Below, one piece after another: positions 8,079 through 12,322 of a stretch of 46,375 bases of DNA. The stretch lies in IMG/VR virus record IMGVR_UViG_2925891887_000007. The stretch is one strand, 5' to 3'. This stretch comes from a virus. Taxonomy: Duplodnaviria > Heunggongvirae > Uroviricota > Caudoviricetes. Position 1 is the first letter of the stretch; the number at the start of each line of letters is the position of its first letter. The notes below the pieces were generated by a model. It did no database searches, was not told the origin of the DNA, and worked only from the letters and a program-made list of their open reading frames with translations. The translations under genes and the position numbers were made by a program.

Positions 8079-8501
8079 GTGGCAAAAGTTTTTACACAAG
8101 AAGAGCGGGAAAAAATTAAAGGGCAGGTGGTGGAACTCGTGCGCCAGAGCGGTCGTGAGACGTTACGGCAACTGGAAGTCAAGACAGGTGCGACAAGATA
8201 TCTGATGAGCGTTCTCGCAAGAGAGCTGGTTGCCAGCGGCGATGTATACAACTCTGGTTACGGGTTATTCCCGTCTGAACAGGCGCGTAAGGACTGGCAA
8301 AATGCCCGTAAAAAGCTCTCAAGGGCAAAGCTGAAGGAACCATCTGCGGTTGATCCGGACCTTATCTGGTCATTACCTGACGGAGAAATACGTCGCTACG
8401 ACAGGCGTCAGAACATAATCTGTCGCGAGTGCCGGAAGAGTGAAGTTATGCAGCGCATACTAGCATTCTATCAGGGAAATGCTCGATATTTATTGAAGTG
8501 A
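8079..8501 (+). CDS. Hypothetical protein with possible HTH
   Basis: 140-aa ORF, GTG start with AAGGGGG RBS. Confidence 0.5.
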   Translation: MAKVFTQEEREKIKGQVVELVRQSGRETLRQLEVKTGATRYLMSVLARELVASGDVYNSGYGLFPSEQARKDWQNARKKLSRAKLKEPSAVDPDLIWSLPDGEIRRYDRRQNIICRECRKSEVMQRILAFYQGNARYLLK

Positions 8502-8753
8502 TGAGATTAAAGTTTATTAGTTCAGATATTGATTGGCTCTTTTGTGGAGTAGGGTAGAGTTAGTGTGTTTGTCTGCTTGGTGCCAGCAGCGGATATGTTT
8601 AACAACAGAAAGCATTCAGCATGGTTAGTGGATTTGCAAAGTGGATTAGGATTTGAGAAACTTTGATGAAGTTGTAAAGCTTGTTTCTATAAAAATAGAA
8701 ATTTAACTAATAGTTAAACACACCTCCAGCTTCATTGAAAAGGATTATTAGCT

Positions 8754-9653
8754 ATGATTGATCCACTTATTAGAAACTTACAGAGTGATATTGCACTACT
8801 CCAGCTTTATATCGCGCAACGCAAACAGGCAGGCTTTCATGACATGGAAAGAATAATTGAGTCATTGACCATCTTTATGTTTCGCGCGCTGAAAATGGGT
8901 GAACTGGTAAACATGAATCAGATTAAAGTTAATTTTCCCGCCATTGATTTAGCTGATAATAAAAACATGATAGCAGTTCAAGTTACTACGAATGCAAGTC
9001 CAGCAAAAATTAAAAAAACTATCGAATCTTTTGAGGAAGCAAATGAAATAGGAGAGAGTCTGAAAGATAAATACTCTACTTTATATATTTTTGGTTTTTG
9101 TAAAGCCTCAAGATACCTAACTCCAAGTTATTGTAAAATAATCGACCCCAGCTATTTCGTGAATGAACTTTGCGATAAAGCAGATGAAGATATGGTCCAG
9201 GATATGATTGACGCCATTCGACGCCATCATGATTATACATCATTACATCCATGGAGTGATAAAGATTCACTCGAAATTATACTCAATATTATTAATCGCA
9301 ATGCAATAAAACATCGGATGAGTTGCGAAGGCAGTCTGTCTGATATGCTCACTGGTTTAAAAGAAATTAATGAAGTAATTACAAAAGGAACAATTCAACG
9401 TAAGCAACGTTCAAAATCGATATCTGACTTCAAAGATCAAAGCATGGTGAAATTTATGAGAGGTGTAATGGATGATTTGTCTGTTATTCAAGCCATAGTG
9501 AACAAATCTAAAGTTAACCAAGGTGATATGGTTTATATAAGCCATGAAGATATGATTAATATTGATAAATTAAAAGCTAAAATAGCAAGTGATTCATCAG
9601 AGATTGCAAGGCTAAATAATATTGATATAACACTAAATGTTGTTGATTTATAA
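8754..9653 (+). CDS. Hypothetical 299-aa protein in low-GC cargo island
   Basis: Long ORF in markedly AT-rich DNA; no catalytic motif recognised by eye. Confidence 0.7.
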   Translation: MIDPLIRNLQSDIALLQLYIAQRKQAGFHDMERIIESLTIFMFRALKMGELVNMNQIKVNFPAIDLADNKNMIAVQVTTNASPAKIKKTIESFEEANEIGESLKDKYSTLYIFGFCKASRYLTPSYCKIIDPSYFVNELCDKADEDMVQDMIDAIRRHHDYTSLHPWSDKDSLEIILNIINRNAIKHRMSCEGSLSDMLTGLKEINEVITKGTIQRKQRSKSISDFKDQSMVKFMRGVMDDLSVIQAIVNKSKVNQGDMVYISHEDMINIDKLKAKIASDSSEIARLNNIDITLNVVDL

Positions 9654-9967
9654 TTGTCGATTTAGCAAAACAGAGAATGCTTTGAAAGTTTCACCGAGAA
9701 ATATTTATTGTGAACCTCCTTATTGTTTATCGACTTTTACTCTCCGCTCATTGCAGTACTGTCGGAGAAGGCTACTATGTACAAGAAGCAGCTAACATAA
9801 GCGAGCATCACTATTGATATTAGGAAGAGTATATAAAAACTTCATGCTGAACCTTACAAAAGTAGGTAAACCGGCAATGGCCTAAGTGGCAGGGTCATGT
9901 TGATCCGGCACTGCCGAGCTAATAATTAACAAGCAAATCACTCTTTCTAATAATTTGTTGAAATAAA

Positions 9968-10627
9968 CTAAATATGTATATGTTTACCAACAACCACATA
10001 TGAACTACCTGCTTTGCTCCATGATTTTATTATTTCTAAATTATTATCTGAGCATATTTTACTTACAGTATCCACATCTAATAAACCATAGTAGAAAGCA
10101 TTACGAGAGTTTTGGTATATATACCCATGCAAATGTTTAATACCGCTCTCGTACCTCTTGAAATAAGAACTTTTGTATTGATTGACAATCAGTGCTTCAC
10201 CATCACTCTTTAATAATTCTCTAATCGCACTGAGGACTTTGTGAATTGTGGATTCACATGGAATTGCGGAAAGCACGTTTGCGCAAAGTATGAAATCATA
10301 ATGATTTGTTATTTTATCTATATTTTCATAAGAAACAATATTAGCATTCTTATAGTTATTTATCACGTAATCTGGAATCGTGGTTTGTACACCTCTGATA
10401 ATTTGCACTCTTTCTAGTTGTCTTCTGGAATCTAAAAATGTCACAGTTTCAAATTTATTTACTAATTGTTCTGAATATCTAAGTTTTCCACATCCAAAAT
10501 CAAGGGCATTGTCATTTTTATTAGTGCTTTCAATCTGTTTACAGAGATAGTTAGATGGCATAGTGTGCGGTTTCGCTGCATTTTCTGAACGTATGTTTAT
10601 TCCATTTATTTTGTAATTCAAAATCAA
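9968..10627 (-). CDS. Small class I SAM-dependent methyltransferase-like protein
   Basis: LDFGCGKL (motif I), acidic residue after beta2 (VTFLDS), DFILCANVL, LLKSDGEALIV; very AT-rich; 7 nt downstream of the membrane protein gene. Confidence 0.65.
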   Translation of the reverse strand: MILNYKINGINIRSENAAKPHTMPSNYLCKQIESTNKNDNALDFGCGKLRYSEQLVNKFETVTFLDSRRQLERVQIIRGVQTTIPDYVINNYKNANIVSYENIDKITNHYDFILCANVLSAIPCESTIHKVLSAIRELLKSDGEALIVNQYKSSYFKRYESGIKHLHGYIYQNSRNAFYYGLLDVDTVSKICSDNNLEIIKSWSKAGSSYVVVGKHIHI

Positions 10628-10633
10628 CCTCGT

Positions 10634-11341
10634 TTAAAAAATATTGTTATTGTTAAAGAATTCTTTTATTTTGCTATCAGGTATTTGTCTTACTTGGCTT
10701 TCTGTTCTTGGTTTAACTGATGCTATGAAAATAAGGAAGTCAAATGCGACAAGAGAAATAATCCACAACCAAAGATTAATTAAAGAGCCAGTAACAGAGA
10801 ATATATTTGTTAATTTGGCGATACTTATTATTAAAATAGTAACAAATGCGATTACTGTATGTTCAAAGAAAACCCAAAAGTAATAAACTTTGTTCCAGAA
10901 AAGTTCAACGTAATGTTTGTCTTTTAACTCTTTAACTTCTGGGTAATACAGTTTACTCATTACCTTGTGAGATTCATCAGTAGTTAATTTTCTCGTAACG
11001 CCTGCAATTTTTGCTAATGGTTTAATAATTAAATGACTATCCCACATCTTCCTTATTCCAATAATTTTTGCTACATTATTATGTAGATCTAAAGCTCCAC
11101 TAATTACTGACCAAAAAACTGAAGATGCAATTGGTAATATGCCAAAGGTTAATATCCATTTAATAAATTCCTCGTAGTCTTTAACGGGGGGGATATACTT
11201 GGCATTAATGCCAACCAATGGCATGTAGCCATAAATGACTAATGATAGGTAAAATATAAATGTAGTAATAAAAGTCGCCTTATGGAGCATAGGCAACATT
11301 TCATTATAACTCTTTGGTGGTTCTAACATTTTACTCTCCAA
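10634..11341 (-). CDS. Integral membrane protein (about 4 TM helices)
   Basis: 235 aa with four long hydrophobic segments; first gene of a two-gene minus-strand operon in the low-GC island. Confidence 0.65.
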   Translation of the reverse strand: MESKMLEPPKSYNEMLPMLHKATFITTFIFYLSLVIYGYMPLVGINAKYIPPVKDYEEFIKWILTFGILPIASSVFWSVISGALDLHNNVAKIIGIRKMWDSHLIIKPLAKIAGVTRKLTTDESHKVMSKLYYPEVKELKDKHYVELFWNKVYYFWVFFEHTVIAFVTILIISIAKLTNIFSVTGSLINLWLWIISLVAFDFLIFIASVKPRTESQVRQIPDSKIKEFFNNNNIF

Positions 11342-12071
11342 ACATTCAAAAAAAAGCTAATCTTCTATAATAACGAAATTCAGCTGGCACAATTAAAGAT
11401 TAATTGCCACCAATTTCTTGATTTTATAATTTTATCTAAATGTTTTTGATTAATCTAGTCCTAAAAGAAACCTACTGCATAAATATTTATGCTGATGACC
11501 CACTCCCTGTTCGTTAACACATAGCAACGTTAGTAATGCATCCTAAGTGATCAATATTTTTGCTAGCTTCATCTGCTCGCTCAAAGGGAACTATAATGTT
11601 GGCTTGCGTGTGACTTGGCATGTTTAAAGAAGTGCTGGTGGTGACTGGTTGCTGTTTTCCATTTCCACAGAACAAAATCATAGAAACTATACCCAGTAGT
11701 TGTATTGAATCACTGACGAGACAGCCTCATATTTATCAGGACTGGTGTACGTCCAATACAGGAGGTTGTGGTGCTGGTTCTCAAATGTGCGCTGGCTATT
11801 GCTGCTGTAATGGCAATTTATTGTCTTGCTGTTGTTCTTATGGATCACCTTTCTGATTGATTTCATATTGGCGAGGTAACGGTAGTTAAGTAGAATTGCT
11901 GCGGGTGCTTGAGGCTATCTGCCTCGGGCATCAACACCAAAGGCAGATAGAGAAAAGCCCCAGTTAACATTACGCGTCCGGCAAGACGCTTAACATTAAT
12001 CTGAGGCCATATCTATGCTCTACACACGTAGGTTAGCCTCTTACGTGCCGAAAGGCAAGGAGAAGCAGGCT

Positions 12072-12227
12072 ATGAAGCAGCAAAAGGCGATGCTAATCGC
12101 CCTGATCGTCATCTGTTTAACCGTCATAGTGACGGCACTGGTAACGAGGAAAGACCTCTGCGAGGTACGAATCCGAACCGGTCAGACGGAGGTCGCTGTC
12201 TTCACAGCTTACGAACCTGAGGAGTAA
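12072..12227 (+). CDS. hokD: Hok family type I toxin
   Basis: MKQQKAMLIALIVICLTVIVTALVTRKDLCEVRIRTGQTEVAVFTAYEPEE; AAGGAGAAG RBS; in-frame upstream extension resembles a mok-like leader. Confidence 0.9.
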   Translation: MKQQKAMLIALIVICLTVIVTALVTRKDLCEVRIRTGQTEVAVFTAYEPEE

Positions 12228-12295
12228 GAGACCCGGCGAGGGAGAAATCCCTCGCCACCTCTGATGTGGCAGGCATCCTCAACGCACCCGCACTT

Positions 12296-12322
12296 AACCC
12301 GCTTCGGCGGGTTTTTGTTTTT
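12296..12322 (+). terminator. Rho-independent terminator after hok
   Basis: AACCCGCTTCGGCGGGTTTTTGTTTTT hairpin plus T-run. Confidence 0.6.

Follow-up and report, generated by a model that had tools for sequence, protein, structure and literature searches.

The window analysed here is a stretch of 46,375 nucleotides (nt) of viral DNA (IMG/VR record IMGVR_UViG_2925891887_000007; Caudoviricetes). It is a Qin-like lambdoid prophage whose integration site adjoins rspB/ynfA, and E. coli CFSAN064035 carries a segment identical to that of the window. Our subject is a pair of minus-strand genes within it, which a first-pass annotation, made from the sequence alone, had picked out as a candidate defence, exclusion or envelope-modification module. 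The upstream gene (10634..11329) encodes a membrane protein of 231 amino acids (aa) with four transmembrane (TM) segments, and the downstream gene (9968..10621, from the RefSeq start) a predicted S-adenosylmethionine (SAM)-dependent methyltransferase of 217 aa. The upstream open reading frame (ORF) could also begin at a TTG (10634..11341); we placed the start at the ATG at 11329, because RefSeq uses this codon and because homology to prophage e14 of E. coli K-12 begins there. An alternative TTG start at 10627 would extend the methyltransferase gene to 9968..10627 (219 aa). Both ORFs exist and are co-directional, as first annotated, but the gap between them is 6 nt, or 12 nt with the RefSeq start, rather than 7 nt. 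The intergenic junction (10622..10633, minus strand), as read from the sequence, contains a GAGG Shine-Dalgarno motif, and so short a junction with this motif implies that the genes are co-transcribed and that their translation is coupled. At other loci, the two genes abut or overlap.

Although the pairing had been taken as undescribed, it has an annotated homologue in the cryptic prophage e14 of K-12. There, ymfE (b1138, uncharacterised) lies directly upstream of ymfD (b1137, a putative SAM methyltransferase), adjoining lit; one of the methyltransferase homologues we recovered also bore the label ymfD. In BLASTP comparisons, the window membrane protein matched YmfE over its full length (60% identity over 232 aa, E = 1e-108), as did the methyltransferase YmfD (68% identity over 214 aa, E = 2e-112). 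On this similarity, the window pair can be placed as a diverged member of the annotated but functionally uncharacterised ymfED family, and the pairing itself is not new. The two copies share gene order, strand and the tight junction, and each has a defence gene beside it (lit in e14, the SMEK/DS-27 gene described below in the window). They differ in that their DNA is only ~69% identical and that the e14 copy lies at the att/int end of its prophage, whereas the window copy lies in a slot between the replication genes and hokD. DNA similarity runs from the ymfE ribosome-binding site to the ymfD stop codon, with unrelated flanks, and its confinement to the two coding regions indicates that the pair moves as a discrete cassette. 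This cassette occurs in 434 of 5,426 complete E. coli genomes, 146 of them with the window allele and 283 with the e14 allele (the latter mostly K-12 derivatives). The homology to e14 supplies a name and no mechanism, and no function for ymfD or ymfE was reported in the literature that we searched.

The pairing extends far beyond E. coli. Word-seeded searches returned 39 membrane-protein clusters and 621 methyltransferase matches. Directly upstream of distant methyltransferase homologues in Vibrio cholerae, Neptuniibacter and Microbulbifer lay an unannotated gene of ~210-230 aa, and these genes proved to be YmfE homologues, with the shared motifs NYNEML, PPxKD, HNK, RYxWD, LYYPE, HYVxLFW and FWVxFEH. 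A profile search enlarged the membrane family to 107 clusters, which rose to 570, 331 of them at E ≤ 1e-30, when 1.84 billion representatives were searched exhaustively with HMMER. Lack of conserved co-occurrence of the two genes had been named beforehand as an outcome that would refute the proposed module, and it was not what we saw. With hidden Markov models of both families, the genes were adjacent in 11 of the 11 independent contexts first sampled, including a metagenome-assembled genome from Chloroflexota. A reciprocal locus search was seeded from the methyltransferase alignment, the membrane-protein alignment being too divergent for pattern-based searching. It recovered 30 loci from species-representative genomes (Gamma-, Alpha- and Deltaproteobacteria, Planctomycetota, Dormibacterota, Bacillota and Verrucomicrobiota) and 27 IMG/VR viral contigs. 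All 27 of the viral contigs had an adjacent partner on the same strand, as did 27 of the 30 genome loci. Of the other three, one was cut off by the end of its contig just past the methyltransferase gene, one was a partial gene and one a marginal non-member, such that all 27 evaluable genome loci retained the pair. Gene order was reversed at three loci (L031, L034 and L037), again with adjacency retained.

Altogether, the pair was found in at least eight phyla, among them Proteobacteria, Bacillota, Planctomycetota and Chloroflexota, and only three homologues were found on plasmids. The ratio of non-synonymous to synonymous substitution (dN/dS) was 0.08-0.27 for both genes, which indicates purifying selection. 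The two genes are a strictly co-occurring unit, a mobile cassette whose range reaches far outside E. coli. What is new here is the breadth of the ymfED family, its strict pairing, its natural fusions and its association with defence islands.

The fusions are of two kinds. In the first, a single chain of 459 aa (P0302) consists of a YmfE-like module, a short linker and then a YmfD-like methyltransferase, and it was found on four contigs from independent samples. Such a natural fusion argues strongly that the two proteins form a physical complex, in which the enzyme sits at the cytoplasmic C-terminal side. In the second lineage, an N-terminal TIR_2 domain (E = 2.2e-26) precedes the membrane module, and the methyltransferase gene still follows. 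One such protein (P0370, 400 aa) is intact and occurs on three contigs; another (P0212, 336 aa) carries a frameshift close to TM3 in each of two independent metagenome contigs (L016, 2893..4091; L017, 71..1269). As a separate observation, the gene for the membrane protein-methyltransferase fusion lies, in locus L020 and in a 200-kb Joint Genome Institute (JGI) contig, inside a mur/ftsW cell-division cluster, accompanied by genes for a GIY-YIG protein, a MerR regulator and a DUF1569 protein; this is an unusual site for accessory genes.

The downstream protein of the window is predicted to be a class I (Rossmann-fold) SAM-dependent methyltransferase. Curated Pfam cut-offs were exceeded by Methyltransf_12 (35 bits against 30) and Methyltransf_23 (32.8 bits against 27), and the SAM-binding motifs LDFGCGKLRY, TFLDS and DFILCANVL could be read in the sequence. 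A glycine-rich motif I, an acidic residue at the end of β2, a motif IV and a seven-strand Rossmann fold, the marks of the class, were all present. No DPPY-type or ENV motif was found in the protein, in agreement with the first-pass annotation, and a DNA methyltransferase (of the restriction-modification or MADS type) was rejected because target-base motifs are lacking and the partner is a membrane protein. Its top 60 structural neighbours were small-molecule, peptide or tRNA methyltransferases with no DNA methyltransferases among them, and the nearest included UbiG, phosphoethanolamine N-methyltransferases and cyclopropane-fatty-acid-synthase-like proteins. A profile search of PDB sequences gave weak matches only (PKMT2, TehB and UbiG, E ~ 1e-3), and the only PADLOC match was to mad2, a weak one (4e-5) over the generic SAM core.

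Conservation was assessed for both proteins across 33-34 sequences from at least eight phyla. In the methyltransferases, motif I (LDxGCGKLRY), motif II (DS) and motif IV (CxNVxSAxP) were invariant, and an N-terminal SENAAKPH motif was conserved. Such conservation suggests an active enzyme whose acceptor is likewise conserved.

The membrane protein has four TM segments (~21-39, 57-79, 151-175 and 185-207), as judged from hydropathy and from an AlphaFold (AF2) model, which bears out the first description of it as a four-TM protein. The model is all-helical and of high confidence (predicted local distance difference test score, pLDDT, 92.3; predicted template-modelling score, pTM, 0.85), and its TM segments are arranged 2 + 2 around a helical middle domain of ~70 aa. 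As this domain carries 13 Lys/Arg residues, it and both termini should be cytoplasmic. Residues H83, R93, Y129 and W152 were invariant, and Y8, D97, M124 and D137 were conserved at ≥90%; all of them lie in or next to the cytoplasmic domain. The conserved residues point to a ligand-binding or catalytic pocket, as predicted from the alignment, and not to a passive pore. The membrane protein had no match in Pfam, NCBIfam or PADLOC, and a PHROGs scan gave nothing usable. When PDB sequences were searched with the family profile, only a chance match appeared (E = 0.4), Foldseek against viral models returned nothing below E = 1, and no structural match was found.

In the window, the cassette lies in an AT-rich block between the replication genes and hok, rusA and the antiterminator gene, as first annotated, but this block (~8500-11650; GC content 0.29-0.36, compared to 0.45-0.55 in the flanks) exceeds the two-gene pair and includes a third gene that had been missed. 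It is flanked on one side by YdaT, a hypothetical gene and a DUF977 gene, and on the other by sok/hokD, rem, DUF968, rusA and an antiterminator gene. The slot between the DUF977 gene and hokD (~8500..11700) is a variable cargo site, as had been proposed: with the same flanks, it holds flxA-ydfV-relBE in K-12 Qin (L078) and a single minus-strand gene for a 595-aa DUF4209 protein in strain HR5-1 (L079).

The third gene (8754..9653, plus strand) is convergent with the methyltransferase gene and encodes a SMEK-domain protein of 299 aa (Pfam SMEK_N, 1.6e-22; NCBIfam, 6.5e-31; PADLOC Aga_REase, 1e-20). SMEK is described as a nuclease domain of short-Argonaute partners (PMC10810196). The window protein differs by two substitutions from WP_087896215.1 (≥99% identity), which, according to the DefensePredictor study (PMC13092281), was cloned alone and validated as the anti-phage system DS-27. 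Because of this near identity, the low-GC block combines a gene of proven defence function with the ymfED-like pair. In one enterobacterial subclade, which takes in the window allele and diverged alleles of 83-89% identity, the SMEK gene accompanies the pair in the same convergent arrangement; no SMEK gene was found in e14, at several further enterobacterial loci or at any of the non-enterobacterial loci surveyed. A three-gene system that includes SMEK was rejected, because the gene is absent from e14 and many other loci and works alone as DS-27. It is a frequent neighbour and an independent single-gene defence system, not a component of the pair. In one diverged enterobacterial allele (L068, 6947..8089), the SMEK gene is followed by a glycosyltransferase gene that matches Pfam GT4-conflict (PF20706, 7e-13).

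Other copies of the pair also lie beside defence genes. Known defence systems were found within three genes of it at six or more of 26 non-enterobacterial loci. Hachiman was directly beside it twice (HamB, E = 0), and adjoining genes elsewhere belonged to Gabija (GajA, 5e-226; GajB, 6e-179), Lamassu (LmuB, 2e-131) and Olokun (OloA, 1e-88; OloB, 5e-172), or encoded an Hhe/PDC-S37-like protein (2.5e-272). In enterobacteria, the neighbours were a type I-C retron, Lit (in e14) and DS-27 (in the window). The retron (1.3e-219) lies on an element with P4-cII-like and relaxase genes, on which the pair is located between it and an M78-peptidase/beta-protein module, the beta protein being PD-Lambda-2-like. 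Aggregated scans of the neighbourhoods gave further LmuB, RmrA, SIR2 and ORC/Cdc6-like matches, and many serine recombinases. For comparison, in a published survey of E. coli, a known defence gene lay no more than ten genes away for 2% of all genes and for 17% of the known defence genes themselves (PMC13092281). Members of the family are often beside known defence systems in unrelated genomes, as guilt by association would have it, relative to this published rather than a matched baseline.

The carriers are prophages, satellites, integron arrays and defence islands. Within them, the pair occupies cargo positions: the replication-hokD (nin-region) slot in the window, the att/int end of e14, and sites next to integrases elsewhere. 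In a P2-like Providencia prophage it lies at the end, directly after gpD-ogr, and in V. cholerae it is part of an array of ParE/ParD and DUF3709 cassettes. At the Microbulbifer locus (L014), where Olokun (OloA/OloB) is just upstream, a DUF6988 gene (8819..9418) lies just downstream of the pair, with a Tse2-like ADP-ribosyltransferase gene and a SUFU-like gene also nearby; DUF6988 is among the domains newly implicated in defence by DefensePredictor.

Expression of the pair differs in what can be said of the two E. coli alleles. The AT-rich 5′ region of the window ymfE-like gene (11330..11650, minus strand) is, by its composition, the presumed promoter region. It is not homologous to the region upstream of ymfE in e14, DNA homology starting only at the ribosome-binding site and ATG, and a consensus scan found no σ70 site on the minus strand upstream of the gene. 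The suggestion that the pair is expressed from its own promoter in the lysogen was not confirmed for the window allele. In K-12, σ70 holoenzyme binds the ymfE-lit spacer in vitro, and the same study assigned a promoter to a 'ymfED' operon (PMC3946193). DNA damage induces the lytic genes of e14 but not ymfE-ymfD (PMC11002266), which places ymfED outside the SOS/lytic programme and fits the expectation for lysogen-expressed cargo. A Keio deletion of ymfD with ymfE intact grows normally (PMC12096079). In the same study, peaks of N6-methyladenosine (m6A) in mRNA were lost in the ymfD deletion and also in three unrelated methyltransferase knock-outs, so this effect is non-specific. A small RNA, C0293, is annotated just past the 3′ end of ymfD in e14 of K-12 (L002, 2712..2783); at the corresponding place (9654..9967), the window shows no homology to the C0293 region, and Rfam gave no match there.

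What emerges is a two-protein, membrane-anchored methyltransferase complex that is conserved and mobile, retains an intact SAM site and is carried in defence-rich cargo positions. What does it do? Of the roles first proposed, defence is the one best supported by context, whereas envelope modification of the O-antigen or lipopolysaccharide (LPS) type is unlikely: we rejected it because the pair also occurs in monoderm and other non-LPS phyla (Bacillota, Chloroflexota and Planctomycetota). On these contextual grounds, we infer a role in defence and regard the pair as a strong candidate for a defence module of a new type. Our favoured, if tentative, reading is that the pair acts in conflict with phages or mobile elements, with the methyltransferase as the sensing or activating component and the four-TM protein as the effector; we hold it as plausible but somewhat short of probable.

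The working of such a module can be sketched. The cytoplasmic YmfD-like methyltransferase would dock on its dedicated four-TM YmfE-like partner in the inner membrane to form one functional unit. As the enzymatic sensing or activating subunit, it might produce a methylated ligand that binds the partner's conserved cytoplasmic pocket (H83, R93, D97, Y129 and D137) or methylate that pocket directly. The membrane protein would then act as an effector that compromises the membrane, with abortive infection or exclusion as the outcome. Some lineages would have gained a further effector domain, of the TIR (NADase) type, at the N-terminus. Here, we infer which subunit senses, which one kills, and the nature of the methyl acceptor. 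A wider form of this proposal strikes us as doubtful at present, namely that ymfED-like cassettes are a widespread, unrecognised class of anti-phage systems, in which a methyltransferase activates a four-TM effector of new fold, through a methylated signal or through methylation of the effector, and to which TIR NADase domains have been added in some lineages.

Several known systems resemble the pair in part. The CBASS, Pycsar and Thoeris types are small operons that combine an enzyme with a transmembrane or TIR effector. The likeness is one of architecture only: a small operon of a cytoplasmic enzyme and a membrane-spanning protein, a location in defence islands and, in some lineages, a TIR domain added to the membrane component, which resembles the modularity of effectors in those systems. 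In contrast to them, the pair has a predicted class I SAM methyltransferase in place of a nucleotidyl cyclase or a TIR signal generator, and neither PADLOC nor Pfam linked it to their components. The occurrence of enzyme and membrane protein as one natural chain also suggests that the two touch directly and do not communicate through a diffusible messenger. CheR, a class I methyltransferase that acts on the cytoplasmic helical domain of chemoreceptors and so sets their signalling state, is a conceptual analogue only, and we make no claim of homology. RexAB of phage lambda and the integron system Sucellos (10.1101/2024.07.02.601686) are likewise two-gene prophage or integron modules of a cytoplasmic and a multi-TM partner, and RexAB is, like the pair, lysogen cargo in a lambdoid prophage. 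No similarity of sequence or fold to either was detected, and the cytoplasmic partner of the window pair differs in having an intact SAM site. Two integron systems, Toutatis (a methyltransferase with the 64-aa TutA) and the RexAB-like Sucellos, were rejected as identities for the pair on gene size and description.

A number of observations weigh against a role in defence. The literature that we searched contains no experiment that ties ymfE, ymfD or their homologues to phage resistance. PADLOC-DB v2.0.0 has no specific model for either protein, the mad2 match given above being the only one. In the accessible part of the DefensePredictor study, which covers the same contigs, the SMEK gene is listed and the pair is not among the matches listed. 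No homologue was found among 50,697 sequenced phage genomes. The enrichment near defence genes was compared to a published E. coli baseline, and not to a matched control from the same genomes. K-12 carries ymfED and yet is a standard phage-sensitive host, which means that any protection must be narrow or silent. The normal growth of the ymfD deletion disfavours a mechanism in which methylation continuously restrains a toxic partner. Finally, the small-molecule enzymes that are the structural neighbours of the methyltransferase fit a metabolic role equally well.

One such metabolic role would be the modification of a lipid or quinone, which we consider unlikely. The membrane protein would bind or present a small molecule universal to membranes (a phospholipid head group, a polyprenyl phosphate or a quinone), the docked enzyme would methylate it, and the envelope would be remodelled for stress tolerance, biofilm behaviour or a non-abortive form of superinfection exclusion. 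The weak sequence matches of the methyltransferase to UbiG and TehB agree with this, as does its structural kinship, and its invariant catalytic-pocket residues imply a substrate that is conserved across phyla. Although the membrane protein matches no known lipid-modifying family, its conserved His/Arg/Asp/Tyr cluster lies at the membrane-cytoplasm interface and could bind a phosphate-bearing head group. Deletion of ymfD in K-12 also lowered early biofilm formation (PMC3105296). A purely metabolic role is, however, hard to square with the TIR-domain fusion, and a patchy, mobile distribution with Hachiman, Gabija, Lamassu, Olokun and retron neighbours is typical of conflict genes.

An addiction module, in which the membrane protein is a toxin that the methyltransferase neutralises, and which stabilises its mobile carrier, seems improbable. 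Small membrane toxins are common, the pair is compact, consists of two translationally coupled genes and travels on mobile elements, and toxin-antitoxin cassettes adjoin it in the V. cholerae array, as hok/sok does in the window. Against this, K-12 tolerates loss of ymfD with ymfE intact, and single-chain fusions of both proteins would be unusual for a toxin and its antitoxin. Moreover, the full catalytic SAM site is kept across phyla, which is more than an antitoxin needs, and neither gene matched a toxin or antitoxin family in library scans.

The tehA-tehB operon consists of a membrane-protein gene followed by a methyltransferase gene. Although this layout parallels that of the pair, and the methyltransferase passes the Pfam TehB cut-off marginally (22.2 bits against 20.4) and has TehB structures among its few PDB sequence matches (E ~ 4e-3), it is very improbable that the pair methylates and exports a toxic small molecule or oxyanion in the manner of TehAB, since the NCBIfam TehB equivalog models scored about ten-fold short of their cut-offs (27.1 and 25.9 bits against 303 and 218), generic methyltransferase models outscore TehB, the membrane partner has only four TM helices and is unrelated to TehA (no TehA/SLAC1 similarity and no Pfam match), and the TIR fusion and the mobile, defence-island context would be left unexplained.

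A defence function, if the pair has one, would bring to bacterial immunity a mechanism that is driven by a methyltransferase and does not act on DNA, and it would give a function to ymfD and ymfE, long-standing y-genes of K-12 that lie beside the classic exclusion gene lit. The membrane component of the pair has a fold without a solved or annotated relative. With a copy in K-12, Keio deletions and standard phage panels to hand, the hypothesis is cheaply and directly testable. Even if the role is not defence, the strict pairing, the fusion and the polar pocket define a new membrane-anchored methyltransferase complex.

Some further features concern the surroundings of the pair. In E. coli TW14425 (H14), the three-gene block is split by IS5, with a transposase annotated between the two pieces of the match. 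Directly beside the block in the window, the sok antisense RNA (11903..12077, plus strand; Rfam RF01794, 114 bits against a gathering score of 59) and hokD (12072..12227, plus strand) form an intact hok/sok type I toxin-antitoxin locus, which is followed at 12236..12317 by a weak, sub-threshold isrK-like match.

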